Source: Candidatus Sungiibacteriota bacterium
Lineage (GTDB): Bacteria; Patescibacteriota; Minisyncoccia; Sungbacterales; HO2-52-23
NCBI GenBank assembly: GCA_016180435.1
Contig: JACPBG010000002.1
Span: 144,682 to 208,681 of the forward strand
Reading direction: 5' to 3'
DNA length: 64,000 nucleotides
Shown: positions 6,796-20,116 of the stretch, piece after piece
How positions within the stretch are numbered: the first letter of the stretch is position 1
Layout of the letters: every line of letters starts with the position of its first letter
The notes under the pieces: model-generated
Seen by the model: the letters and a program-made list of their open reading frames with translations, nothing else
What the model was told of the DNA's origin: nothing
Databases searched by the model: none
Program-made: the position numbers and the translations under genes

Positions 6796-6824
6796 AAAGA
6801 AAAGAATAGTTTTTTATAAATATT

Positions 6825-6898
6825 GCCGGGTCGTCTAACGGTAGGACAGCGGCCTTTGAAGCCGTGAATGAGGGTCCGATTCCTTCCCCGGCAGCCAT
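6825..6898 (+). tRNA. tRNA-Gln (anticodon UUG), CCA encoded
   Basis: Manual fold: acceptor TGCCGGG/CCCGGCA (7 bp), D arm GTC-TAACGGTAG-GAC, anticodon arm GCGGC-CTTTGAA-GCCGT with UUG at positions 34-36, 4-nt variable loop, T arm GAGGG-TCCGATT-CCTTC, discriminator G, then CCA. The T-loop TCCGATT is slightly atypical. Confidence 0.7.
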
Positions 6899-7150
6899 CC
6901 TGTGACCCCTACCGAGACGGGTCATGCGCCACAAGCGCTGGCCCGTCAAGGTAGCAGGGAAACGCGGATTCTGGCAAGATGTAACCCATCTTGTACTCGC
7001 AGTTTTGGAGAGAAATTCAAAGTATTTCCACGAGTCGCAAAACTCGTCACCACCACGTCATACCGGCTGAGCGCTCGCCTCGCTGAAGCTTGGCGCAGCG
7101 GGCCGTATTCAAGAACGAAAAGTCCGTCCTTCGACAAGCTCAGGGCGGCT
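6899..7150 (+). repeat. Noncoding element R1 (~240 nt), homologous to R2 at 17877..18120; a possible structured RNA or island-boundary repeat
   Basis: Shares CC(T/G)ACCGAGACGGGT (6908-6922 versus 17882-17896) and an exact 17-mer CCTTCGACAAGCTCAGG (7128-7144 versus 18099-18115) at nearly the same spacing (216 versus 213 nt). The interior is diverged but alignable. Overlapping small ORFs are in different frames in the two copies. Confidence 0.45.
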
Positions 7151-7393: not shown

Positions 7394-8020
7394 ATGGCCA
7401 AGAAATTACAAAGAATAGAAGTTGAAGAAAAGCTTAAAAACCTCGGGCTTACAGTGTTTACGCCCCGGGAATTTCAAGGCATCTTTGGTGTGTCAAAAAA
7501 ATCCGTTTCCATGTTTATTTTAAACAATGTAAAAAGCGGTTTATTTGTGAAATTGCGCAATAATTTTTACGCAATCAAAGACAGTAATCCCGATTATTTT
7601 TTTATTGCCAATAAATTATATCAGCCCTCGTATGTATCTCTGGAAACCGCCTTATCGCATTATAAAATTATTCCCGAGGTGGTTTACGGCACTTCTTCTA
7701 TTACCACCAAAGCGCCTCGGGAATTCAAAACTCCGCTAGGCAATTTCACCTACCGGCACATTAAAACCGAAGCATTCACGGGTTATCGGCTGCAAGAAAT
7801 TGACCGATATAATGCGCTGTTTGCAGAACCGGAGAAGGCCCTGGCGGATTATTTATATTTTGTCGACCTTAAAAAGACATCGCTCAATGACCGGTTAAAA
7901 TTAAAGAGTATAAATAAGCCCAAATTGATTGAATATGCCAAGTTGTTTAAACGTAAAAGCATATTCAAACTTATCAATCAAATTTATGCTGACTCGCGCC
8001 AACCTCGAACAATTTACTAA
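7394..8020 (+). CDS. AbiEi-like antitoxin/transcriptional regulator (type IV TA/Abi system)
   Basis: N-terminal wHTH-like segment; GLFVKLRNNFYAI fits the AbiEi G.l.rl.rG.Y.l pattern. Overlaps the downstream AbiEii nucleotidyltransferase gene. Confidence 0.55.
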   Translation: MAKKLQRIEVEEKLKNLGLTVFTPREFQGIFGVSKKSVSMFILNNVKSGLFVKLRNNFYAIKDSNPDYFFIANKLYQPSYVSLETALSHYKIIPEVVYGTSSITTKAPREFKTPLGNFTYRHIKTEAFTGYRLQEIDRYNALFAEPEKALADYLYFVDLKKTSLNDRLKLKSINKPKLIEYAKLFKRKSIFKLINQIYADSRQPRTIY

Positions 8021-8720
8021 GCAATCCCAAACCAAGCTGGAAAATGTTGTCAGGGAATACTGCCAGCATTTGTTTTTGTCGTATTTGTATCAACAGCCGG
8101 GTTCTGAACGGCTGCTTTTTAAAGGCGGCACGGCCCTGCGTATCATTTTTCATAGTCCACGTTATTCCGAAGACCTCGATTTTACCGCAATTAAAATTAC
8201 CCGACATGAAGTTGAGGAACTTTTCGTTAATACTTTGGCGAACATAGAAAAAACCGGTATCCATGTCGGGTTTACAGAAGCCAAGCGGACAGCAGGCGGG
8301 TATTTGGGAATAATTGAGTTTAATATTTATGGCAAAATAGTTGAAGTTTATTTTGAAGTTTCTTTGCGAAATGGCAGGAGTATTGCCGGGGTTAGGCAGT
8401 TTATTGAGAACGATTATATTCAACCCTATACCTTAGTATCTTTATCCAAAGAAATTCTTGTGCAAGGAAAGCTGGCAGCACTTACGGCCCGGCACAAGCC
8501 CAGGGATTTTTACGATTATTTTTTTCTCCTGTCGGGCAATTATCCTGTTGTAAAAGAAAAAGGAAATCTTATCAGGGCTCTTAAGCTGTTGCGGGAGTCA
8601 AAAATTAATTTTCGCGTTGAACTGCGGGAATTTTTGCCGGCAAGCCACTTAATGCATTTGCGGAACTTCAAAAAAATTTTGGAACAAAAAATTCTGGATT
8701 TTATGGGCAAAAAATCATGA
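7986..8720 (+). CDS. AbiEii/AbiGii-family nucleotidyltransferase toxin (DUF1814)
   Basis: LLFKGGTALRIIFHSPRYSEDLDFTA matches the family signature KGGTAL....R.SeDiDf. Internal ATG at 7986 (MLTRANLEQ) within track ORF 7929..8720. Stop TGA overlaps the next start (ATGA). Confidence 0.75.
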   Translation: MLTRANLEQFTKQSQTKLENVVREYCQHLFLSYLYQQPGSERLLFKGGTALRIIFHSPRYSEDLDFTAIKITRHEVEELFVNTLANIEKTGIHVGFTEAKRTAGGYLGIIEFNIYGKIVEVYFEVSLRNGRSIAGVRQFIENDYIQPYTLVSLSKEILVQGKLAALTARHKPRDFYDYFFLLSGNYPVVKEKGNLIRALKLLRESKINFRVELREFLPASHLMHLRNFKKILEQKILDFMGKKS

Positions 8721-8866
8721 AAACTTCCAATTTGCTTAATTGTCATCCGAACACTTTGCGGCAGTGGGATAGGAAAGGTATTTTAGTTGCCGTGCGTTTC
8801 GGCGAGCGAAAAGACCGGCGTTATCGGAAGGAAGACATCCTCAAACTAATTTCCAAGCAAAAATGA
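8717..8866 (+). CDS. Small MerR/excisionase-family HTH protein (49 aa)
   Basis: MKTSNLLNCHPNTLRQWDRKGILVAVRFGERKDRRYRKEDILKL fits the HTH_17 pattern (hp.TirrW.r.G.l.a.R...g.RRY...di). ATGA overlaps with both the upstream AbiEii stop and the downstream radC start. Not in the ORF track (<60 aa). Confidence 0.6.
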   Translation: MKTSNLLNCHPNTLRQWDRKGILVAVRFGERKDRRYRKEDILKLISKQK

Positions 8867-9531
8867 AAATAAAGGATTTACCAAAATCAGATAGGCCGCG
8901 AGAGAAGCTTGTGGCTAAAGGAGCCGAGAATCTTAAGGACTCGGAGCTTTTGGCTATTCTTTTGCGGACCGGCAAAGCTGGGAAAAATGTCATTGAAATC
9001 GCTTCGCAGATTTTAGCCAAGCATTCCAAAAAGCGGCTCTTGCAAATGACCTATCAGGACCTGGTAAAAATCGGCGGCATTGATTCGGCAAAGGCCACAA
9101 CGCTTCTGGCCGCCTTTGAGCTCGCAAAACGCGCCCTGGAAGTGAATGACACGAATTTACCGACCATCGTTACCCCTAAAGATGTCGTGGCTCAACTGGC
9201 CGAGTTGCGCAATAACAAAAAAGAACATTTCATTGCTTTGTACCTCAACGCCAGAAACCAACTGGTTCATAAAGAAACAATTTCAATGGGTACCTTGAAT
9301 GCCAACCTAGTCCATCCTCGAGAAGTTTTTGAACCGGCACTTAAGCATTCGGCCGCCAGCATTATGGTTGCGCATAATCATCCTTCCGGTGATTCAAAGC
9401 CGTCGGAGGACGATTTGGAAATAACAAAGAGATTAGTAGAAGCTGGCAAGTTGATGGGGATTGAAGCAGTAGACCACATTATTATTACCAAAAACACCTA
9501 TCTTAGCTTCAGAGGAGAACGTTTGATTTAA
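8863..9531 (+). CDS. radC: RadC-like JAB/MPN-domain protein
   Basis: HhH N-terminal region; JAMM motif HNHPSGDSKPSEDD near the C-terminus. Confidence 0.85.
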   Translation: MKIKDLPKSDRPREKLVAKGAENLKDSELLAILLRTGKAGKNVIEIASQILAKHSKKRLLQMTYQDLVKIGGIDSAKATTLLAAFELAKRALEVNDTNLPTIVTPKDVVAQLAELRNNKKEHFIALYLNARNQLVHKETISMGTLNANLVHPREVFEPALKHSAASIMVAHNHPSGDSKPSEDDLEITKRLVEAGKLMGIEAVDHIIITKNTYLSFRGERLI

Positions 9532-9535
9532 ACCT

Positions 9536-11905
9536 ATGCCCAACTTTTCTAAAAAAGAATTTTCCGAGCAGGATATTTGTTCAAAATTCATTCTTCCGGC
9601 GCTTACAAACGCCGGCTGGGATTTACAGAAGCAAATCCGCGAGCAGTATAGCTTTACCGCCGGTCGGATTATCGTGCGCGGCAAAACCGTTTTTCGCGGG
9701 GAGAAAAAACGCGCCGATTTTGTTTTATATCATCGCGGCCATCTCCCGCTCGCAATTATTGAGGCCAAGGATAATAAACATCCCGTCGGCGCCGGAATGC
9801 AGCAGGCACTTGAATATGCCGAAGCGCTTGATATTCCTTTTGTCTATAGCGGGAATGGCGACGCGTTTCTTGAGCATGACCGCCTTGTGAAAACTGAGCC
9901 CATTGAAAACGAGCTCCCATTAAACGAATTCCCGTCTCCAGACGCGCTTTACAGCCGTTATGTGAAAGCTAAAGGACTTGCCGCCGAGCAGGAAAAAGTA
10001 ATCAGTCAGGATTATTATCAGGAGATTGACGGCAAGTCGCCCCGCTACTTCCAGCAGGTTGCGATTAACCGCGCCACCGAAGAAATCGTCAAAGGTAAAA
10101 ACCGTCTGCTTTTGGTGATGGCCACCGGCACCGGCAAAACCTACGCCGCGTTTCAAATCATCTGGCGTTTGTGGAAAGCCGGAGTTAAAAAGCGGATTCT
10201 CTTTCTGGTGGACCGCAACATTTTGGCTGATCAGCCGATTATGAATGACTTCCGACATTTTGGCGACAAGATGACTAAAATTCAGCATCGCCAAGTTGAT
10301 AAGTCATACGAAGTGTATCTTGGTTTGTATCAGGGGCTAACCGGAATGGAAGAAGAAAAAAACATATTCAAGCAGTTTTCACCGGACTTCTTTGATTTGG
10401 TTATTGTTGACGAGTGTCATCGCGGAGCGGCGCGCGAAGACGCTTCTTGGAGAGAAATTCTTGATTATTATAAAAGCGCCACCCAAATCGGTTTAACCGC
10501 CACTCCCAAGGAAACTGCCGATATTTCAACCCAAACCTATTTCGGCGAACCGGTATATACCTATTCGCTCCGGCAGGGCATTGAAGACGGCTTTCTTGCG
10601 CCCTACAAAGTTATTCGCGTTACTTTGGATAGAGACGCGGAAGGATATCGCCCCACGGCTGGCGAGGTTGATAAATATGGCAACCCACTGCCTGATCAGA
10701 TTTTCGGCCAGAGCGATTTTGACCGCAAGCTTGTGCTGGAAGAGCGCTCAAAAGTCGTTGCGCAAAAAATTACCGAATATCTCAAAGCCACTGACAGGAT
10801 GCAAAAGACCATAGTATTTTGCGTGGACACCGAGCACGCCGACCGCATGCGTAAAGAACTTGTGAACGCTAATGCCGATCTCGTGAGTGAGCACCCGAAT
10901 TATGTCGTTCGCATCACCGGCAACGACGAGCACGGCGTAAAAGAACTTGATAAATTCATTGATCCCGAAAGCCCGTATCCAGTTATCGCCACCACTTCAA
11001 AGCTTCTTACCACTGGCGTAGATACCCAAACCGTCAAACTAATTGTCATTGACCAGAATATCAACTCAATCATTGAATTCAAGCAGATTATCGGCCGCGG
11101 CACGCGCGTGCGCGAGGATTACGGCAAGATGTTTTTTACCATTATGGATTTTCGCGGCGCGACCGAGCTCTTTGCCGACCCGAAATTTGACGGCGATCCG
11201 GTGGTCATTTACAAAACCAAAGAAAAAGGGCCGATTGTGCCGCCCGAAGAAAAAGACGGAGGAACAGAAATCGGCCCCGAGGAGAAACCCATTATTGAAT
11301 ACGGCCCGCCGGGAACCGGCGTCGGCATCGTCCGCGACGAGCCGAAAAAATATTACCCCTTGGGCGTGGAAGTGAAAATAATCCACGAGCGCGTGCAGTA
11401 TATGGACGAGCGCGGCAAACTTATCACCGAATCGCTCAAGGACTACACCAAGCGAAACATTCTGCAAAGCTACGCATCGCTCAACGACTTTTTAACCGCC
11501 TGGACTAAGACCGAACAAAAAGAAGCAATCCTCAAAGAGCTTGAAGATCGCGGTGTATTTTTTGCCGAGCTTTCTGCCGAAGTCGGCCGGGACTTGGACA
11601 CCTTTGACCTTGTCTGCCATGTGGCTTGGGGCAAAAAGCCGCTCACGCGCAGCGAGCGGGCGGAAAAGGCGCGCAAAAAAGATTACTTTGCTAAATACGA
11701 AGGCAAGGCGCGCGAAGTTATTGAGGCGCTCCTCGCTAAATACGCCGATCAGGGCATCACCGCCATTGACGACATCGGCGACTTGCAGGTTTCGCCGTTT
11801 GACCAATTCGGCACGCCGTACCAAATCGTCAATGACATCTTCGGCGGCCGCGAAAAATACCTCACGGCAGTTAAAGAGGTCCAGCAGGCGCTCTACGTGG
11901 GTTAG
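9536..11905 (+). CDS. hsdR: Type I restriction enzyme R subunit
   Basis: HsdR N-terminal PD-(D/E)xK nuclease (FILPALTNAGWD...ADFVLY...IEAKD). Helicase motif I LLLVMATGTGKT and motif II VIVDECHRG. hsdM and hsdS lie downstream. Confidence 0.85.
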   Translation: MPNFSKKEFSEQDICSKFILPALTNAGWDLQKQIREQYSFTAGRIIVRGKTVFRGEKKRADFVLYHRGHLPLAIIEAKDNKHPVGAGMQQALEYAEALDIPFVYSGNGDAFLEHDRLVKTEPIENELPLNEFPSPDALYSRYVKAKGLAAEQEKVISQDYYQEIDGKSPRYFQQVAINRATEEIVKGKNRLLLVMATGTGKTYAAFQIIWRLWKAGVKKRILFLVDRNILADQPIMNDFRHFGDKMTKIQHRQVDKSYEVYLGLYQGLTGMEEEKNIFKQFSPDFFDLVIVDECHRGAAREDASWREILDYYKSATQIGLTATPKETADISTQTYFGEPVYTYSLRQGIEDGFLAPYKVIRVTLDRDAEGYRPTAGEVDKYGNPLPDQIFGQSDFDRKLVLEERSKVVAQKITEYLKATDRMQKTIVFCVDTEHADRMRKELVNANADLVSEHPNYVVRITGNDEHGVKELDKFIDPESPYPVIATTSKLLTTGVDTQTVKLIVIDQNINSIIEFKQIIGRGTRVREDYGKMFFTIMDFRGATELFADPKFDGDPVVIYKTKEKGPIVPPEEKDGGTEIGPEEKPIIEYGPPGTGVGIVRDEPKKYYPLGVEVKIIHERVQYMDERGKLITESLKDYTKRNILQSYASLNDFLTAWTKTEQKEAILKELEDRGVFFAELSAEVGRDLDTFDLVCHVAWGKKPLTRSERAEKARKKDYFAKYEGKAREVIEALLAKYADQGITAIDDIGDLQVSPFDQFGTPYQIVNDIFGGREKYLTAVKEVQQALYVG

Positions 11906-11944
11906 TTGACAATCGCTTGACAATCAAATATAGATTGCTTTACA

Positions 11945-13012
11945 ATGAAGTTGCTTATGACAAATAAGGACAAAATCTTGCAATTGATTGAACAGAAAGG
12001 GAAGATTACGGCGCGTGAGATTACGGAGGTAACTGGCGTATCTCGTCAGTACGTCAATCTTGTGATTTCCGGTCTTGTTGCAGAAGACAAGGTGGTCAAG
12101 CTTGGGGGAACCCGGGGCGCTTTTTATGTTTCAAAAGCATATATCGCTAAACACCCGGAGATTGTTCCTAATACTTTAAAGAAAAGGTACATCAATAAGT
12201 CGCTCGAAGAGCACAAGGTCTTTCTAGAGATAGAGGATAAATTGTCGCAACTTAAAGATCTGCCTGAAAATGTGCGGAGTATTTTTACGTTCGCATTTTC
12301 CGAGATGTTCAATAACGCGATTGAACATTCCGCATCAAGAATTATTTCGGTGGAAGTAACGTTGCGGGGAGAATTTCTATCATTCATTGTAAACGATGCC
12401 GGTGTTGGCGTATTTCGCAACATTATAAAAAAACGGAATCTTAAATCGGAAATAGAAGCGATTCAGGACTTATTGAAAGGAAAAACTACAACCATGCCGA
12501 GAACACACTCTGGAGAAGGAATTTTTTTTACTTCCAAGGCGGGAGATATGTTTACTTTGGACAGCTTTGGCCAGATGCTCATTATTAACAATCTTACGAA
12601 TGACATTTCCGCGCGCCATGCGTCTGCCGTCAAACGCGGCACGCGGGTTATTTTTAGGATTAAAACTGACTCCGATCGCCATCTAAACGATGTTTTTAAA
12701 AAATATACCAACATCAACGATGACAGCGATTACGGTTTTGATAAGACCGAGATACGGGTAAAACTCTATACTTCGGGCGGCGTCCATATCTCTCGTTCGC
12801 AGGCGCGCAGGATTTTGGAGGGGCTTGAAAAGTTTAAGATAATCCTGCTGGATTTTGAGAACGTACCCCTGGTAGGGCAGGCGTTTGTGGATGAAATATA
12901 TCGTGTATTTCAAAATGCGCATCCGAATATTCTAATTCAGGAAGAAAATATGTCGGAAGGCGTGAAGTTTATGGTGGAGCGAGCGAAAAATGAAGCGAAG
13001 AAATCAAAATAA
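11945..13012 (+). CDS. HTH + GHKL-type ATPase (anti-sigma-factor-kinase-like) + DUF4325/STAS-like domain protein, embedded between hsdR and hsdM
   Basis: N-terminal wHTH (KITAREITEVTGVSRQYVNLVISGL). GHKL N-box EMFNNAIEH and G1 box VNDAGVGVF. C-terminal ILLDFENVPLVGQAFVDEIYRVF matches the DUF4325 signature. Confidence 0.55.
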   Translation: MKLLMTNKDKILQLIEQKGKITAREITEVTGVSRQYVNLVISGLVAEDKVVKLGGTRGAFYVSKAYIAKHPEIVPNTLKKRYINKSLEEHKVFLEIEDKLSQLKDLPENVRSIFTFAFSEMFNNAIEHSASRIISVEVTLRGEFLSFIVNDAGVGVFRNIIKKRNLKSEIEAIQDLLKGKTTTMPRTHSGEGIFFTSKAGDMFTLDSFGQMLIINNLTNDISARHASAVKRGTRVIFRIKTDSDRHLNDVFKKYTNINDDSDYGFDKTEIRVKLYTSGGVHISRSQARRILEGLEKFKIILLDFENVPLVGQAFVDEIYRVFQNAHPNILIQEENMSEGVKFMVERAKNEAKKSK

Positions 13013-13037: not shown

Positions 13038-14516
13038 ATGTCCAACATCCAATCAGTCATCAAAAACATCCAAGATATCATGCGTAAAGACGCGGGCGTG
13101 GATGGCGACGCCCAGCGGCTCTCCCAGCTTGTCTGGATGCTTTTCCTGAAAATTTTTGATGACCAGGAGCGCGAGCGCGAGCTTATCAATCCCAAATATC
13201 GCTCACCCTTGCCCGAGGATCTCCGCTGGCGCAACTGGGCAGGCGACCCGGAAGGAATGACCGGCGACGGGCTTCTGGAATTCGTCAACAACAAGCTTTT
13301 CAAACGGCTGAAGGATTTGTCTTTTGACGAGAGCGAAGACCCTCGGGCTTTTATCGTTCGCGAGGTGTTTGCCGACAGCTACAACTATATGAAGTCCGGC
13401 ACCCTTATCCGGCAGGTCATTAACAAAATAAACGAAATTGATTTTAATAAAGCCGACGACCGTCACGCCTTCAACGACCTCTACGAACATCTGCTCAAAG
13501 AGCTCCAAAGCGCGGGCAACGCAGGGGAGTATTACACGCCCCGGCCGCTCACGCGTTTTGTGGTAGAGATGGTTTCCCCTAAACTTGGCGAAAAGGTGCT
13601 GGATCCGGCCTGCGGCACCGGCGGATTTTTGATTGACACTCTGGAATACATCCGTAAGCAGGAAATAAAAACCGCGGCGGATGAAAAGAAACTCCAAAGC
13701 CAAATACAAGGAGTAGAACTCAAGTCGCTACCATATTTATTAGCTACGACAAATATGATTTTGCACGGCGTGGACACGCCAAAGCATTTGCGCCATGGCG
13801 ACATGCTTTCCCAACCATTGCGGGAATATGGGCCGAAAGATCGCGTTGATGTGATTGTGGCCAATCCGCCATTTGGAGCCGATGTCAAAGATGGCATAGA
13901 GAAAAACTTTCCGACCGAATTCCGCACCCGCGAAACTGCCGACCTCTTTTTGGTACTTTTTATTCATCTTTTAAAACCAAACGGCCGCGCCGGCATCGTG
14001 CTTCCCGATGGCTCGCTTTTCGGCGAGGGCGTTAAAACCGCCATCAAGAAAAAACTCCTTGAAGAGTGCAATGTGCATACCATTGTCCGCCTGCCGCAAG
14101 GCGTGTTTAATCCGTACGCCGGAGTAAACACCAACCTAATTTTCTTCACCAAAGGCGAACCCACCAAAGAAATCTGGTACTACCAGCTTCCGCTCCCCGA
14201 AGGCGTCAAACAATACACCAAAAACCGCTGCATCACAGACGCAGATTTTGATCAAGTTAGAGAGTGGTGGAATAAAAGAAAGGATAATGCGCTTGCCCCG
14301 TTAGAGGCCGCGAGGGCTCGCAGCGTGTCTTCGCCTCTAATGGGGTGGAAAGTATCAATCAAACAAATCCAAGAACGAAACTACAATCTGGACTTCAAAA
14401 ACCCGAACGGCAATGCAAAACTCGTCCACAAAGACCCGAAAGAAGTTTTGGAGAGCATCGCCAAAACCGAATTCCACATTGCCAAAATTTTGGAGGAGAT
14501 AAAGAAAGAGATATGA
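13038..14516 (+). CDS. hsdM: Type I R-M N6-adenine DNA methyltransferase subunit
   Basis: SAM motif I VLDPACGTGGFL and motif IV VIVANPPFG. Contains an in-frame 50-nt palindromic repeat near its 3' end. Confidence 0.9.
   Translation: MSNIQSVIKNIQDIMRKDAGVDGDAQRLSQLVWMLFLKIFDDQERERELINPKYRSPLPEDLRWRNWAGDPEGMTGDGLLEFVNNKLFKRLKDLSFDESEDPRAFIVREVFADSYNYMKSGTLIRQVINKINEIDFNKADDRHAFNDLYEHLLKELQSAGNAGEYYTPRPLTRFVVEMVSPKLGEKVLDPACGTGGFLIDTLEYIRKQEIKTAADEKKLQSQIQGVELKSLPYLLATTNMILHGVDTPKHLRHGDMLSQPLREYGPKDRVDVIVANPPFGADVKDGIEKNFPTEFRTRETADLFLVLFIHLLKPNGRAGIVLPDGSLFGEGVKTAIKKKLLEECNVHTIVRLPQGVFNPYAGVNTNLIFFTKGEPTKEIWYYQLPLPEGVKQYTKNRCITDADFDQVREWWNKRKDNALAPLEAARARSVSSPLMGWKVSIKQIQERNYNLDFKNPNGNAKLVHKDPKEVLESIAKTEFHIAKILEEIKKEI
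14296..14345. repeat. Small palindromic element (CCCCGTTAGAGGC ... GCCTCTAATGGGG) lying inside the hsdM reading frame
   Basis: 13-nt inverted termini with one mismatch enclose a GC-rich core cgcgagggctcgcagcgtgtcttc. The termini match the CCCCGTTAGAG/CTCTAACGGGG family at 24074 and 49561. The hsdM frame stays open through it (peptide ALAPLEAARARSVSSPLMGW). Confidence 0.5.
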
Positions 14517-16015
14517 AAAATATTTTGTCTTTAAACGCAAAAGAAGCTCGGAAATTCTTTCTTAAGCACGAAAGTTATTGTAATTTTGACTTACCGCCCT
14601 ATTTCAAGTTTGATAGTATTCTAAACGACCTGTCTAATACTCTTAAAAACACGAACTTATCTAATTTTTATTCGTCAACAAAAAAGCCGTGGGACTTTGA
14701 AGATGTTAATTACAGATTAACAAGTAACAAAGACGGGAAATATGCGTGGCGACCACTTCAACTTATACATCCGGCCTTGTATGTAAACCTAGCTCATATC
14801 ATCACTGAACCAAAGAACTGGAAGGACTTGAAAGCTCGCTTTACTTTTCTAATGAGGGAAAGTCGCAATATTGAGTGTGAGGGTCTGCCAGTGATTTCTT
14901 CTTACTATAGAAAAGACCGAGCAGCACAAATAATCCACTGGGTAGATAAAGTGGAAAAAAAATCTATCAAGTATGCTCTCGCATACGATTATGTACTACA
15001 CACGGATATCACTGATTGTTACGGAGCAATATATACACACTCGATATCGTGGGCGCTACACGATAAAAGTGTCGCCAAAGACAGGCGTCATGATGATTCT
15101 CTGTGTGGTAATAAGATCGATAGACAACTGCAAGCCATGTCAAATGGTCAAACGAACGGCATTCCGCAGGGTAGCGTCCTCATGGATTTTATTGCTGAGT
15201 TGGTTTTGTGCTATGCGGACAGCTTGCTTGCACAACAAATTTCTACCATTAAAAAGTCAGAATACCGCATTATCAGATACAGGGACGACTATAGAATTTT
15301 TACGAACCATTCACAGATTGCAGAACAAATAATGAAAGAGCTTACCGATGTTCTACATAATTTAGGATTAAAAATAAGTTCCTCAAAAACCAAAGGGACG
15401 GATAAAGTAGTACATTCATCAATCAAAGAGGACAAATTGTATTGGTTTGCGCATGGACGTAATCATGATAAATTGCTCCACGAACTACTCAACATATCTT
15501 TGTTTGCGGAGAGTTTTCCTAATTCAGGTCAATTAACGATCCTGCTTAATAGCGTTTATTATAGAATAATAGATTTGTATAGAAAGGATATAAAAGAAGA
15601 TATCACAGCCCTTATTAGTGTTGCGGTTGATATTGCGTATAAAAATCCGAGGGTTTATCCAATCGCGACTGCAATCATTAGTAAGCTTATAGACTTTCTT
15701 CCAAAATCCAAAAGAGAAAAGGCAATCCAAAAAATATTACAGAGATTCAAAAAACTTCCTAACACTGGGATAATGCAAATTTGGCTGCACAGGATAACGG
15801 TTAAGCTTGGTGGAAATTATGACCATTCCGAAAGATTGTGCACAAAAGTAGTAGATCCAAACGTGAAGATTTGGAATTCTGATTGGCTGAAGACAATGCT
15901 TCGTAGAAAAATTGATATTTGTAATGTAATTGACGCAGATGAACTTATAAAGATTGGAGCCGTGATCGGTAAAGATGAGGTTGAACTATTCAAGGTTACC
16001 GACTACTCATATTAA
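14512..16015 (+). CDS. Reverse transcriptase (Abi/UG-class, defence-associated type) encoded between hsdM and hsdS
   Basis: RT motifs LHTDITDCYGAIYTHSI (motif 1-like), NGIPQGSVLMDFIAELVL (motif 4, QG) and RIIRYRDDYRIF (motif 5, YxDD). ATG at 14512 overlaps the hsdM stop (ATGA). The track's longer ORF (14345) begins inside hsdM. Confidence 0.7.
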
Positions 16016-16019
16016 AATT

Positions 16020-16526
16020 ATGCCCTACCCAACAAAAAAATTAGGAGAGAACATAGAAGACAAATCAAAAGATAGTAGAATTCTTTTTTCAATTTTAACT
16101 GGACGAAATTCGCATATATTGACTATCGTTATCGTTGGGCATTTGCTAACAGAACATCTTTTGGACAAAATTATTACTGCTAAATTTAAAAATAAGAGAA
16201 GTAACCCGAAGGAGAGTTTTTCACAAAAACTTGAGCTTCTTTATCCAATGTGGCTACCTCTATTTATTTATAAAAACATAAAACTTTTAAATGAAAGCAG
16301 AAATGACATAGCGCACAATTTGGGAAGTATTGATTATAAGCCGTTTATTTATACGCATCGGGGAGAAAAGAAAATTGTTAAAATTCCAAAAAGAAAAAAT
16401 GAAGAAAAGTTTTATTTCCGAGAACTTATCAATACCGTATTGTTTGATTTAGTAAATTATTCGTCTGATACTTTAGGTATTTCCAACGACATAGATTTAA
16501 ATATTATCTTTCGTCAGAAAAACTAA
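16020..16526 (+). CDS. Small HEPN-like (Rx4H) protein whose N-terminus duplicates the hsdS N-terminus; candidate partner of the RT
   Basis: ESRNDIAHN contains an R-x4-H HEPN-type motif. The first 10 codons (MPYPTKKLGE) and ~25 nt (ctacccaacaaaaaaa...ggaga) duplicate the hsdS start at 16528. Internal ATG in track ORF 15975..16526. Confidence 0.4.
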   Translation: MPYPTKKLGENIEDKSKDSRILFSILTGRNSHILTIVIVGHLLTEHLLDKIITAKFKNKRSNPKESFSQKLELLYPMWLPLFIYKNIKLLNESRNDIAHNLGSIDYKPFIYTHRGEKKIVKIPKRKNEEKFYFRELINTVLFDLVNYSSDTLGISNDIDLNIIFRQKN

Positions 16527-16527
16527 T

Positions 16528-17796
16528 ATGTCTACCTACCCAACAAAAAAACTCGGAGAAGTATTGGATTACGAACAACCCGGGAAGTATATCGTAAATT
16601 CCAAGAATTACAGTAACGACTATAAAACGCCGGTTTTAACAGCTGGTAAAACTTTTATATTGGGAAATACAGATGAAAAAGAAAACGTATTCCCATCTGA
16701 AAAGTTACCGGTAATAATTTTTGATGATTTTACTACTACTATAAAATTTGTTGATTTTCCCTTTAAGGTTAAGTCTTCGGCAATGAAGATTTTGCATGCT
16801 AAAAAAGGTGTAGCAGATATCAAATATTTATTTTATTTAATGCAAACCATAGAACTCAATCATGCAACGCATAAACGATATTGGATATCAGAATTTTCTC
16901 AATTAGAAATCCCTCTCCCGCCGCTTTCAGAGCAGAAGAAAATCGTGACGAGGTTGGAAGGGTTGCTGAAGAAAATTAAGGAGGCCAAGCGCTTGCGCGC
17001 CGAAGCGCAAGAAGCCGCCCAAAACCTCCTCCCCGCCGAACTCCACCGCATCTTCACTCAACAGGATTCTTATTCTCTAATTCGCGCGAATAAGCGAATA
17101 GTTGGAAAACTTACCACAACACACAAACAACATACTTACAAACTTGAGAATGTAAGGATGTTTAATAAGTCCGCCTCCGTTAAAACTTCGGCGGATAAAT
17201 GGGAAGAAAAAGAGTTGGGAGAAATTTGCGAATTGAATCCAAAAAAATCAGAAATAAAAGATAAGGCAGACGATTTTCTTGTTTCTTTTGTTCCAATGTC
17301 TGCTGTTGATGAATACTTGCAAGCGATCGTATTATTGCAGGAACGAAGTCTGGGTGAAGTGAGAAAGGGCTATACTTATTTTAAAAATGGCGATGTTTTG
17401 TTTGCAAAAATTACTCCGTGCATGGAAAATGGGAAAGTCGCTATCGCAAGGAATTTAAAAAACAGCATTGGTTTTGGCACTACGGAATTTCATGTTTTTC
17501 GGGCAAAAAAGAAAGTTTTGCCGGAATGGATTCATTATATTATCGGTCAGCCGTCTTTCCGGGAAATTGCCAAAACCAGAATGACCGGAAGTGCGGGACA
17601 AAAGCGAGTGCCAGTGCAATTTCTAGAAAAATTTAAAATCCCGCTCCCGCCCGTTGCGGAGCAGAAAAAAATCGTGTCGCGGCTGGACTCGCTTTCCGAA
17701 AAAATCAAAAACCTGCGAGAGTATCAGAAAGACACCAAGTCCAACATGCAAAACTTGGAGCGATCTATACTGTATAAAGCATTTGAGAGCAAATAG
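16528..17796 (+). CDS. hsdS: Type I R-M specificity subunit
   Basis: Two TRDs, each followed by the conserved coiled region (LPPLSEQKKIVTRLEGLLKKIKEAKRL and LPPVAEQKKIVSRLDSLSEKIKNLRE). Confidence 0.85.
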   Translation: MSTYPTKKLGEVLDYEQPGKYIVNSKNYSNDYKTPVLTAGKTFILGNTDEKENVFPSEKLPVIIFDDFTTTIKFVDFPFKVKSSAMKILHAKKGVADIKYLFYLMQTIELNHATHKRYWISEFSQLEIPLPPLSEQKKIVTRLEGLLKKIKEAKRLRAEAQEAAQNLLPAELHRIFTQQDSYSLIRANKRIVGKLTTTHKQHTYKLENVRMFNKSASVKTSADKWEEKELGEICELNPKKSEIKDKADDFLVSFVPMSAVDEYLQAIVLLQERSLGEVRKGYTYFKNGDVLFAKITPCMENGKVAIARNLKNSIGFGTTEFHVFRAKKKVLPEWIHYIIGQPSFREIAKTRMTGSAGQKRVPVQFLEKFKIPLPPVAEQKKIVSRLDSLSEKIKNLREYQKDTKSNMQNLERSILYKAFESK

Positions 17797-17876
17797 TCGT
17801 CACGCCCCCGATATTAAGAAACGGAACACGAGACACCCCTTTTATAGTGTTCCGTTTATCCCATTTTGTTCAAAAA

Positions 17877-18210
17877 TAGCCCCGACCGAGACGGGTTAGG
17901 GGAGTAGCAAAAGGAGAGTCAAAAAGGCCCTAAGATACCTTATAGGCGGTCGTTCCAGACCGAAGTGGCCAGCAGCTTTTGACTATGCGAACTCAAAATT
18001 TTCAAATGAGAGGGTTCTCTCAACCACAGACCGTCAAAATGCCAAAAAGTTATTCCATGAGCTTGTCGAAGGGCAACTTTTGGGCTTATATATGTATGCC
18101 TTCGACAAGCTCAGGCAATAAAATTATAGTTTTCGGACGGTCTGTACGCCTCAACAAAATTTTCCACGACTTTTTGGGTTCAAAGCAAATCGCTTGCGAG
18201 CGCAAAACGT
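17877..18210 (+). repeat. Noncoding element R2, homologous to R1; contains a perfect 14-bp hairpin and an outer 10-bp inverted repeat
   Basis: Shared end motifs with R1 (see R1). GAGCTTGTCGAAGG (18058-18071) pairs with CCTTCGACAAGCTC (18099-18112). ACAGACCGTC (~18028) pairs with GACGGTCTGT (~18135). The hsdS terminator hairpin AAACGGAACAC...GTGTTCCGTTT lies just upstream. Confidence 0.45.
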
Positions 18211-18246
18211 GTGTGGGCTAGTTATTATTTGGTATATACTTTATTT

Positions 18247-19104
18247 ATGGAAGAAGCTCCATTTTCGCCAGAAATTCAACCATATAAAAAACCCGTTGAA
18301 GTCGGCGACACCAATAAAATATATTACGATCCCAGTCATCCGGACGTTTTAATCCGCATACCAATAGATAAGGAATCCAAATTTCTTGAAACCAATCCTA
18401 AACTCATCGGAATTGCCGAGAAGATTTATCGTCGTCTCGATGAAATGGGAAAGAGTTTAGACATCGACGTAGCCGATCACCAATTTATTTTAGCGAAAGA
18501 GACGAGCGATGCTCCAGTCAAGCCGATGCTCCTCGCCAAGCGGATTGAGGGCAATCCGCTTGTACCTGTCGACAAAAATAATCTCAAAACTCTTGAAGCA
18601 TTAAGTCGCATTGCTCAACTTGGACATAAATATTTAAATTGGATTGAATCAAATCGACCAAAATCAGTAGTGACTGATGTATTTCGACCAGATCAATATA
18701 TTGCTCATCCCGGAGAAACAGAAGAAACGCATGACAAGCTAACGCTAGTCGACATTGAGCCAAGATTAAAAGATCGCGATCTAGGGATAAAATTTATTGA
18801 TCATGAACTTGGGATGTTAGTCGGCCCATTGCGTAACTCTGCGCATAACGATATTTTTAATTTGTACATGCACCACGCATTCCGTACGCTAAAGCGGAAC
18901 CGTCGCCGCATCGAAATAGGAAGTCTTATTAATATTATTGTTAAAGCACCAGAGTTATACCAACGGATGTCTGAAGATTTTTTAGCTGGCAGAGATACTA
19001 TTTTTACATCTCAGGAGCAACAGGAAATAAAAGATAGGCTACTCAACGCCCCACTGATTGTTAATCAAGAATTACTGAGAAAGTTTGGGATCGAAAAAAT
19101 TTAA
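18247..19104 (+). CDS. Hypothetical protein
   Basis: Long ORF with internal ATG (MEEAPFS) in track ORF 18211..19104. No recognisable motifs. Confidence 0.5.
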   Translation: MEEAPFSPEIQPYKKPVEVGDTNKIYYDPSHPDVLIRIPIDKESKFLETNPKLIGIAEKIYRRLDEMGKSLDIDVADHQFILAKETSDAPVKPMLLAKRIEGNPLVPVDKNNLKTLEALSRIAQLGHKYLNWIESNRPKSVVTDVFRPDQYIAHPGETEETHDKLTLVDIEPRLKDRDLGIKFIDHELGMLVGPLRNSAHNDIFNLYMHHAFRTLKRNRRRIEIGSLINIIVKAPELYQRMSEDFLAGRDTIFTSQEQQEIKDRLLNAPLIVNQELLRKFGIEKI

Positions 19105-19378
19105 GACCATTGCACAAATGAAAAGAATTTAAAGGCGGCGCGTTAGTTTTCAACTGGCACAAAATTCGGCGGAGGAACCCCAGAAGCAGAACGCTTTGCG
19201 TTTGCTACGGGGCAAGAAGCGAGGGCGGGCAAAAATTCCTTCCCCCCAACCCCCTTCTTTTTTGCCCGCCCGAGCAAAAATTATCAAAAGTCGGTGTCCG
19301 GATTTTCGCGAAAAAAAGTTCGGATTTTGTTCAAGACAGACAGATTTCTAGTGAGCCCTACCGAAAAGGGCAAAAACC

Positions 19379-20116
19379 ATGAAAGAATCAGTTGAGCAAA
19401 TCAAAACCAAAGAAGCTGTGCCGAAGCATATTATAGTTGAACTGGGCCCTGGAGACCGTCCATTGGTGTGGAGATTGAGTCGGGATGGGAAAGCGCGATA
19501 TAAAGCGAGAGGCGAGACGCTTTTTAATGTCAATCCTGGTGATACATTCTTTGCAGTAGATCTTCCTCCAGATGAAAGTTTAGACGTTTTTCGGTTCCAT
19601 ATCCAAAAGGGAACTTGGGATCCAGTAGAGCAAAGAATGAAAAGTCATCTGCTGGAAATCAAAGAGCATTTAAACAAATTTTTACCAAAAGGAGCAAAAG
19701 GAGAAGTACTGCATGCAGATGGTCAACGACTTCCATTTATTGATGGTCAAGTAGACGTATTATTTATGTCGAATGTTATTGGCGGTCATATAAGGGGCGA
19801 TGAATTGGGTGGTTTCAAAGCAAATCAGAGGCGTATTTTAAGAGAGAAACAGAATCTTATCAAAGAAGCAAAAAGAGTTTTAAAAACCGGAGGCAAACTT
19901 ATTCTTGAAGAAGAATACGCACCCGCTGAAAATGTAAAAGCGGCTTGGAAAAAGGTAGTAGAAGATTTAAAAAATGATCCGGATTTTACTGCCCGAGATT
20001 TATTTGACAATGGAAACGGAGTACCCGTACTTGAACTAACTAAAAAGGAGTTAGACCAAGACCCATCAATAGGGAGAAAGAATGATCTCCAAGGAAGCTC
20101 TAATGTGCTTCATTAG
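19379..20116 (+). CDS. Putative class I SAM-dependent methyltransferase
   Basis: IIVELGPGD (motif I-like), LHADGQRLPFIDGQVDVLF (post-I/II) and LKTGGKLILEE (motif III-like) in the usual order. Confidence 0.5.
   Translation: MKESVEQIKTKEAVPKHIIVELGPGDRPLVWRLSRDGKARYKARGETLFNVNPGDTFFAVDLPPDESLDVFRFHIQKGTWDPVEQRMKSHLLEIKEHLNKFLPKGAKGEVLHADGQRLPFIDGQVDVLFMSNVIGGHIRGDELGGFKANQRRILREKQNLIKEAKRVLKTGGKLILEEEYAPAENVKAAWKKVVEDLKNDPDFTARDLFDNGNGVPVLELTKKELDQDPSIGRKNDLQGSSNVLH

Follow-up and report, generated by a model that had tools for sequence, protein, structure and literature searches.

Several described bacterial systems pair a GHKL-family kinase with a STAS domain. CapK/CapS and VapKSC are modules of this kind that react to single-stranded DNA (ssDNA) and govern immune genes (Chambers et al., EMBO J 2026, PMC13373217). 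CapK, a kinase with the domain order helix-turn-helix (HTH)–STAS–GHKL, is switched on when ssDNA binds between its STAS and kinase domains and phosphorylates Ser54 of CapS, a repressor in which a STAS domain is joined to a winged HTH (wHTH); 88 of 443 capKS pairs lie just downstream of a restriction–modification (R-M) system, and VapKSC demonstrates that a GHKL/STAS pair can drive phage defense (PMC13373217). As summarized in PMC7693655, Rv1364c of Mycobacterium tuberculosis joins a sensor, a PP2C domain, a GHKL kinase, and a STAS domain in one chain that is regulated intramolecularly. Type I R-M operons, for their part, can host embedded genes, among them DarTG2 with RptR (PMC12255303) and TgvAB (PMC11411939). 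Here we describe a gene that meets both themes: the open reading frame (ORF) at positions 11945–13012 on the forward strand, wedged between hsdR and hsdM in a 64,000-nucleotide (nt) stretch of contig JACPBG010000002.1 (assembly GCA_016180435.1, Candidatus Sungiibacteriota bacterium, a member of the Patescibacteria). This whole stretch is called the window, and the gene and its protein are called X. X belongs to the GHKL-kinase/STAS signaling modules; its architecture is built from known parts, and its family is uncharacterized. The regulation of defense genes is poorly understood, and almost nothing is known of it in Patescibacteria, whose tiny genomes hold few regulators.

An earlier note on this DNA, made from the sequence alone, had read X as a fusion of a winged HTH, a small GHKL ATPase resembling anti-sigma kinases, and a STAS-like DUF4325 module. 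That reading is upheld by Pfam, by invariant motifs, and by comparison of AlphaFold2 models with Foldseek, and both ATP-site motifs quoted in the note, EMFNNAIEH and DAGVG, are present (Table 1; residue numbers follow the numbering of the 355 amino acids [aa] of the full ORF). Support from Pfam was nevertheless divided. DUF4325 (PF14213) matched residues 286–340 over model positions 1–63 of 64 (E = 1.9e-10; 40.7 bits, cutoff 23) and HTH_24 matched residues 10–38 (22.3 bits, cutoff 21.9), whereas HATPase_c_2 (residues 99–201; 25.7 bits, cutoff 27.4) and HATPase_c (residues 117–241; 23.5 bits, cutoff 26.4) fell just below their cutoffs. We accept these two GHKL matches because the motifs are invariant and SpoIIAB heads the fold matches. 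E120, N123, N124, H128, D151, G153, G155, H188, G190, and G192 do not vary in 44 relatives of 32–55% identity, and this Bergerat ATP-binding set is likewise invariant in a second set of 81 sequences. The six best Protein Data Bank (PDB) matches of the AlphaFold2 model (predicted local distance difference test score, pLDDT, 82.3) are SpoIIAB structures (1til, 1l0o, 1tid, 1th8, 1thn), with template modeling (TM) scores of 0.69–0.72 on the target and a probability of 1.0 for 1til and 1tid. As modeled, the GHKL domain is SpoIIAB/RsbW-like, with a predicted fold closest to that of the anti-sigma serine kinases.

The flanking domains are documented to different degrees. Pfam TrmB and MarR_2 also match the wHTH, for which AlphaFold2 predicts helices at residues 7–18, 23–30, and 34–46 and strands at residues 50–53 and 60–63; R34, in the recognition helix, is nearly invariant. 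A single-sequence search of the PDB with X returned nothing, and a profile search returned only generic wHTH proteins (AspA, AdcR, and MarR-type) and histidine kinases; a search of BFVD gave domain-level matches only. The C-terminal 94 residues, modeled alone (pLDDT 88.8), follow the order beta–alpha–beta–alpha–beta–alpha, and almost all PDB matches of this model are STAS domains (prestin, RsbS, TM1442, YchM, SpoIIAA), at probabilities of 0.75–0.97 but with weak E values of 0.02–0.5. Where canonical STAS proteins carry their phospho-serine, the X family has the GQAF motif, in which G311, Q312, and F314 are invariant and residue 313 is alanine or glycine, never serine or threonine. With no serine at the acceptor position, the predicted STAS-like domain cannot be a canonical phospho-acceptor. 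The invariant S283-R284-S285 is a candidate functional site.

The protein is accompanied by an equally distinctive stretch of DNA. Immediately upstream of X, lie three direct repeats of TTKACAAT; boxes 2 and 3 contain a near-consensus promoter, TTGACA-18-TACAAT, which is the only 11-of-12 sigma-70-like site between positions 9300 and 18300. This element of about 40 nt is common to the upstream regions of 77 homologous loci, whatever gene adjoins. Across 58 of these loci each of its positions is 80–100% conserved, conservation falls to background just left of box 1, and 51 of them share a spacing of 11 nt between boxes 1 and 2; the element has been kept in these 58 loci despite saturated synonymous sites in the X gene. 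Distant homologues from other phyla (n = 18, 35–55% identity) carry two to six TT[GT]ACAA boxes, with a mean of 2.33 in the 130 nt upstream of X against 0.053 in random windows of the same 18 loci, and two or more boxes occur upstream of 72% of these genes as compared with 0.9% of random windows. The boxes vary with lineage (e.g., TTGACAAC, TTTACATG), and in a homologue whose recognition helix has valine in place of R34 they are changed to GGTTTAAAAT. Box pairs number 118 at X promoters and zero elsewhere in 809 kb of flanking DNA; within the 64-kb window the exact double box occurs once, at X, and no boxes were found upstream of other genes of the island in which X lies. The idea that the boxes mark a local regulon was accordingly rejected, as neither the window nor the 809 kb of flanks holds a further cluster. 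The comparative evidence is strong that the boxes serve as the putative operator of X's own wHTH, although binding itself is inferred, and it points to gene and element as an autoregulated protein–operator pair. The three to six box copies of some distant lineages would argue for more than promoter function.

The element also bears on where X begins. Because the −10 hexamer overlaps the ATG at 11945, and most homologues lack that codon, the true start is probably the ATG at 11957, 12 nt further downstream. Homologues are mostly 349–352 aa long with the N-terminus MTNK, and the −10 hexamer lies 10 nt from the ATG in 45 of 58 loci. The single 355-aa ORF that the earlier note placed in the hsdR–hsdM gap is thus present, with a probable product of 351 aa; 39 nt separate hsdR from the ORF start at 11945, and 25 nt separate X from hsdM. 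Since the −10 hexamer ends 10 nt upstream of ATG 11957, the X mRNA is probably almost leaderless. Some prophage copies of X (L094, L095, L097, L098, L102) look different in this region: their upstream repeats are inverted, not direct (TTGTAAACTTAAA … TTTAAGTTTACA), and they have a strong Shine–Dalgarno sequence, AGGAGG, unlike the leaderless copies from the candidate phyla radiation (CPR).

X is a real gene, with thousands of full-length homologues and a ratio of nonsynonymous to synonymous substitution rates (dN/dS) of 0.04–0.07. Relatives at E ≤ 1e-3 number 4,510 among 90%-identity clusters, and at 50% identity 648 cluster representatives reach E ≤ 1e-30 and are, with few exceptions, full length (335–355 aa). 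The closest relatives (70–93% identity) all come from Patescibacteria/CPR metagenome bins, where they occur in differently labeled candidate lineages, while relatives at 35–45% identity are labeled Proteobacteria, cyanobacteria, and others. The dN/dS values were obtained against the X of the window at dS of 0.6–2, and synonymous sites are saturated relative to homologues of 81% identity or less; these values mark X as an old protein on which purifying selection is strong. In IMG/VR, a profile-guided scan recovered 51 viral contigs with full-length homologues (33–43% identity). Their neighbors include terminase subunits, tail proteins, integrases, endolysins, holins, and HTH regulators, and the homologues occupy the module borders where prophages, here predicted ones, keep accessory genes. 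NCBIfam has no model for the protein, and its sole match in PADLOC-DB 2.0 is a marginal Csa3 wHTH (E = 0.0024). We found no paper on the family, and the literature on DUF4325 or on GHKL plus STAS in defense yielded only CapK/CapS and incidental mentions.

What, then, is the relation of X to the R-M genes around it? The neighborhoods of 80 X loci were surveyed, one genome per species. A first tblastn search with HsdR, HsdM, and HsdS of the window placed R-M genes beside only about 6 of 80 homologues, an undercount in that short remnants were missed. When terminal peptides of 30–40 aa from HsdR, HsdM, and HsdS were instead searched against the 200-nt windows flanking X, hsd termini, from intact genes or remnants, appeared in 18 of 157 flanking windows (12 loci) against 2 of 404 control windows 2.5–5.5 kb away (odds ratio 26; Fisher p = 6e-9). 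The position of X beside hsd genes is not chance. X recurrently fills the gap between two hsd transcription units, in the order hsdR–X–hsdM in the window and in four other loci (L009, L007, L010, L034) and hsdS–X–hsdR in five more (L019, L020, L024, L036, L057), and the two HsdR families that adjoin it are only 33–34% identical. Many copies are preceded by the last codons of hsdS (…KAFxGEL, stop) or hsdR (…QQALYxG, stop), and the first codons of hsdR (MNESETRAEYIDP…), of hsdM (MSNIQSVIKNIQD…), or of a Mod-like methylase follow 1–3 nt after the X stop codon, often as short remnants; an ORF begins 1–3 nt past that stop in at least 18 loci besides the window. An ORF starting MANKNLTNAKRAKNDEFYTQY… directly follows X in L021, where it appears truncated, and in L023, and we take this start to resemble the N-terminus of Mod-type DNA methyltransferases.

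The R-M genes themselves are seldom intact. Of 81 loci, about 4 have a complete type I system beside X and at least 8 more have remnants alone, with neither in the rest. In L007, L010, L020, L024, L034, L036, L052, and L057, truncated ends of hsdR, hsdM, or hsdS, 10–40 codons long, flank an intact X, and L057 combines an intact hsdR upstream with a remnant of an hsdR 5′ end downstream. Such truncated ends suggest that type I R-M loci of Patescibacteria have recombined and decayed time and again, and X outlasts them. Nor does any other gene accompany X faithfully: clustering four genes on each side disclosed no conserved neighbor (the largest cluster other than X held 7 of 482 proteins, at no fixed position), and no Pfam family was present in more than 4 of 148 immediate neighbors (HsdR-type domains 4, MnmA 4), which otherwise include Fic, RhuM, EF-P, YchF, enolase, and PolA. 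X therefore reads as a stand-alone unit, and in having no conserved neighbor and in staying intact between hsd remnants it behaves as a cassette.

These observations divide two further claims of the earlier note. That such fusions recur in defense islands is borne out by the enrichment of hsd termini and by the accessory position of distant relatives in prophages; it does not extend to the bulk of the neighbors, which are ordinary, or to PADLOC. That X regulates or augments the R-M system is plausible at this locus only, where its promoter faces hsdM and no terminator-like site was found in the 25-nt gap between them. But X stays intact at loci with decayed R-M genes or none, and it often forms a transcription unit by itself; only in the window and a few other loci, not in most, does it sit upstream of hsdM or hsdR at the promoter of an immune operon. 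Because it is retained without R-M and without a codirectional neighbor, R-M control cannot be its general function.

Tentatively, we favor reading X as an autonomous switch made of one protein, which is driven by ATP, represses itself, and moves together with its promoter as a cassette. Its wHTH would bind the boxes that overlap −35 and −10 and so hold its own promoter down, and the STAS-like domain may sit against the kinase domain, acting as its pseudo-substrate or as a sensor. A trigger—which, by analogy with CapK and VapK, could be ssDNA or another by-product of infection or damage—would alter the ATP or phosphotransfer state of X, and X would then phosphorylate itself, or a partner in trans, and leave the DNA. 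At this locus, where no terminator separates X from hsdM, the X promoter probably also drives hsdM, the reverse transcriptase (RT) gene behind it, the 183-aa ORF, and hsdS (13038..17796) as one transcript, and its release would raise all four. The setting is one of mobility and conflict: X lies in an island that follows tRNA-Gln and contains AbiEi/AbiEii, a type I R-M system, and an Abi-P2 RT, and its relatives include those on the 51 IMG/VR contigs. Its frequent occurrence as a solo unit at R-M junctions and in the accessory regions of prophages makes a mobile, conflict-related sensor or regulator the most likely general role of X, rather than a housekeeping factor.

Several points weigh against this reading. 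DNA binding, kinase activity, trigger, and target are all inferred, and we found no biochemical work in the literature on any member of the family. Part of the conservation of the boxes could reflect promoter function alone, as they overlap the −35 and −10 hexamers. A dN/dS near 0.05 is unusual for direct sensors of phage components, PADLOC has no model for the protein, and searches of 72,556 plasmids and 50,697 cultured phage genomes turned up no homologue. Most neighborhoods, moreover, are ordinary, including four further contexts with Pfam labels and the three genes on either side of X in the 18 most distant loci.

Other explanations draw on the same evidence. X might be a dedicated controller of type I R-M in the manner of C proteins, RptR, or CapK/CapS, deciding when or how strongly hsdM/hsdS are expressed, or hsdR where the gene order is the other one. 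Such a role would suit its constant place, among hsd-flanked loci, at the junction of two hsd transcription units, the enrichment of hsd termini beside it, and its promoter, the strongest of the region and tightly coupled to the downstream hsd gene; type I R-M is also known to have small regulators tied to it and genes embedded in it (PMC12255303, PMC11411939). We nevertheless consider it unlikely: intact systems are few and remnants more frequent, R-M genes are missing from the surroundings of most loci and of every locus with a distant homologue, the gene that follows X is convergent with it in 22 of 78 genome loci and in 25 of 48 viral ones, and the other island genes have no boxes. An improbable alternative, too, is a stand-alone abortive-infection kinase or fused toxin–antitoxin-like protein following CapRel-type or VapKSC logic, with the GHKL domain as effector, the STAS-like domain as inhibitor in cis, the HTH serving autoregulation only, and the R-M junction no more than a permissive landing site. 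The single-gene cassette, direct-repeat operator, patchy distribution, and retention after neighbors decay would all agree with this proposal, as would the AbiE pair and Abi-P2 RT in the window, the homologues in prophage accessory positions, and the phage defense driven by VapKSC. X has no recognizable toxic effector domain, however, and SpoIIAB-type kinases have narrow substrates; the missing PADLOC match, the extreme conservation, the many housekeeping neighborhoods, and the absence of homologues from the plasmid and phage genome collections likewise speak against it.

It is still less likely that X is an ordinary transcription factor of the one-component kind, shared by Patescibacteria and other bacteria, whose regulon lies elsewhere in the genome and whose position in hsd loci and prophages is incidental. 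Strong purifying selection on a conserved full-length architecture, mostly ordinary neighbors, and autoregulation are what one would expect of a transcription factor, but the 26-fold odds of hsd termini beside X are not, and neither are its patchy occurrence, with 70–93% identity across differently labeled candidate lineages, its presence in predicted prophages, or the lack of a second box cluster in the flanks or the window. Finally, X could be a canonical partner-switching anti-sigma factor fused to its antagonist, as if SpoIIAB were joined to SpoIIAA or RsbW to RsbV, which would phosphorylate its STAS domain and thereby control an alternative sigma factor. In its favor, the GHKL domain finds its closest structural counterpart in SpoIIAB, SpoIIAA and RsbS are among the STAS proteins that the C-terminal domain resembles, and Rv1364c is an example of such a fusion. 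This option is very improbable given the G311-Q312-A313 sequence at the acceptor position (Q312 invariant, residue 313 alanine or glycine, no serine or threonine), the DNA-binding domain that X itself carries, and the lack of any sigma-factor family among the recurrent neighbors of 80 genome and 31 viral loci, a count that covers flanks only and not whole genomes.

The self-repressing switch may also be put in a bolder form, which we regard as somewhat unlikely. X would then represent a new, widespread class of one-chain "partner-switch" immune sentinels, each uniting an HTH repressor, an anti-sigma-type kinase, and a pseudo-substrate STAS domain; they would sense infection or DNA damage and either de-repress themselves and downstream defense genes or phosphorylate a target in trans, and they would provide the main transcriptional control of type I R-M in Patescibacteria while being used by prophages as well. 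If X does follow the logic of CapK/CapS and VapKSC in one chain, that principle would gain a new architecture and reach into a large, uncultured portion of the bacterial tree, and X could help explain how type I R-M operons are controlled in Patescibacteria. For work on these organisms, the conserved promoter, whose transcript is nearly leaderless, would also make a useful genetic part. With thousands of members, extreme conservation, and a defined candidate DNA site, the family is directly testable.

Table 1. Positions of X, its domains and motifs, its upstream element, and the genes of the surrounding island in the 64,000-nt window
Feature	Position (nt)	Strand	Remarks
Most likely X coding sequence	11957..13012	+	351 aa + stop; begins MTNKDKIL
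Winged helix-turn-helix domain of X	11957..12142	+	residues ~5–66; recognition-helix motif V-S-R34-Q35-Y36
SpoIIAB/RsbW-like GHKL ATP-binding domain of X (predicted)	12197..12709	+	residues ~85–255
N-box EMFNNAIEH	12302–12328	+	residues 120–128
G1 box DAGVG	12395–12409	+	residues 151–155
Lid KGKTTT		+	residues 178–183
G2 box HSGEGIFF	12506–12529	+	
STAS-like DUF4325 domain of X (predicted)	12746..13009	+	residues ~268–355
Invariant S283-R284-S285	12791–12799	+	start of STAS helix 1
G311-Q312-A313-F314	12875–12886	+	position of the phospho-serine in canonical STAS proteins
Promoter/putative operator element	11906..11946	+	~40 nt, 5′ of X
Box 1, TTGACAAT	11906–11913	+	directly after the hsdR stop codon
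Box 2, TTGACAAT	11917–11924	+	three bases after box 1; contains −35 TTGACA
Conserved spacer, CAAATATAGATTGC	between box 2 and box 3	+	
Box 3, TTTACAAT	11939–11946	+	contains −10 TACAAT at 11941–11946
tRNA-Gln	6824–6897		island begins right after
AbiEi/AbiEii type IV toxin–antitoxin pair	7394–8720		left end of island
RadC (JAB domain)	8863–9531	+	4-nt gap to hsdR
hsdR, EcoAI/type IB family	9536..11905	+	NF046051, 1150 bits
hsdM	13038–14516	+	
Abi-P2-type RT	14513–16015	+	PADLOC PDLC03744, E = 4e-190
183-aa ORF	15975–16526	+	no family match
hsdS	16528–17796	+	

Some further features of the island stand out (Table 1). The RT is wedged between hsdM and hsdS, and its ATG overlaps the hsdM stop codon (ATGA). 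A 25-nt direct repeat at 16024–16048 and 16535–16559, 92% identical, puts a second copy of the hsdS 5′ end within the 183-aa ORF, with YPTKKLGE at residues 18–25 of the ORF product and residues 4–11 of HsdS; it looks like the scar of an insertion of the RT segment at the start of hsdS. At the two ends of the island, which spans about 11 kb, two 17-nt repeats, CCCC(T/G)ACCGAGACGGGT and CCTTCGACAAGCTCAGG, recur with equal spacing (6906–6922 and 7128–7144 on the left, 17880–17896 and 18099–18115 on the right). They were considered as candidate att-like sites, but the DNA between them is dissimilar, and no integrase was seen. G+C content is 0.375–0.41 over positions 14001–20000, a range that takes in the RT, the 183-aa ORF, hsdS, and a 297-aa ORF (18211–19104) that has no family match, and 0.44–0.49 around it; ordinary genes follow the island. 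Elsewhere, AbiE pairs lie upstream of X homologues in L010 and L050 also, and RadC is found beside or near homologues in at least six other loci (L008, L013, L029, L009, L007, L052), in some as N-terminal remnants only.

Among described systems, the closest parallels to X are CapK/CapS and VapKSC, which act in the regulation or execution of anti-phage immunity and likewise combine an HTH, a STAS domain, and a SpoIIAB-like GHKL kinase; the wHTH of CapS is even of the HTH_24 type, like that of X. The parts are, however, arranged differently. Whereas CapK runs HTH–STAS–GHKL, X runs wHTH (residues 10–66), GHKL (99–241), and STAS-like (286–340), and whereas CapK always occurs with a separate downstream substrate, CapS, X is one chain without a conserved partner gene. 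DUF4325 is matched by X but by neither CapK nor CapS (sequences from the source data of PMC13373217), and hhalign with the X-family alignment A3 aligned only 32 HTH columns with CapK, at a probability of 3%, and only the wHTH with CapS, at 31%. The phospho-serine of CapS, S54, lies in D52-S53-S54-F55, where X has G311-Q312-A313-F314, and CapS binds palindromes while X is preceded by direct repeats. An orthology of X with CapK was therefore rejected on domain order, the lack of an adjacent capS, and the lack of similarity beyond the HTH.

With SpoIIAB–SpoIIAA and RsbW–RsbV, X shares the SpoIIAB-fold GHKL domain with its N, G1, and G2 boxes and, in its C-terminus, a STAS-like beta–alpha fold; it differs in being fused to a DNA-binding domain, in having no serine at the start of helix 2, and in having no sigma factor linked to it in the flanks surveyed. 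The MORC/paraMORC GHKL ATPases of R-M systems, a family reportedly defined by Iyer, Abhiman and Aravind in 2008, are said to consist of a HATPase_c_3-type GHKL domain followed by an S5-fold domain. On that definition X was rejected as a member of the family, for it matches only HATPase_c_2 and HATPase_c, has a SpoIIAB-like fold, and ends in a STAS-like domain. Rv1364c resembles X in placing a GHKL kinase before a STAS-type domain in the same polypeptide; that protein carries PAS and PP2C domains but no HTH and autophosphorylates its STAS domain, whereas X has a wHTH, no phosphatase, and no acceptor serine.

The position of X, lastly, recalls DarTG2/RptR and TgvAB, and PrrC is likewise embedded in type I R-M operons. 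These are toxin, nuclease, type IV restriction, or small-repressor modules, whose domains X does not have, and, unlike them, most relatives of X lie outside R-M loci. What X appears to share with all three is its place in the gap between hsd transcription units, where an embedded gene functions independently of the R-M system around it.

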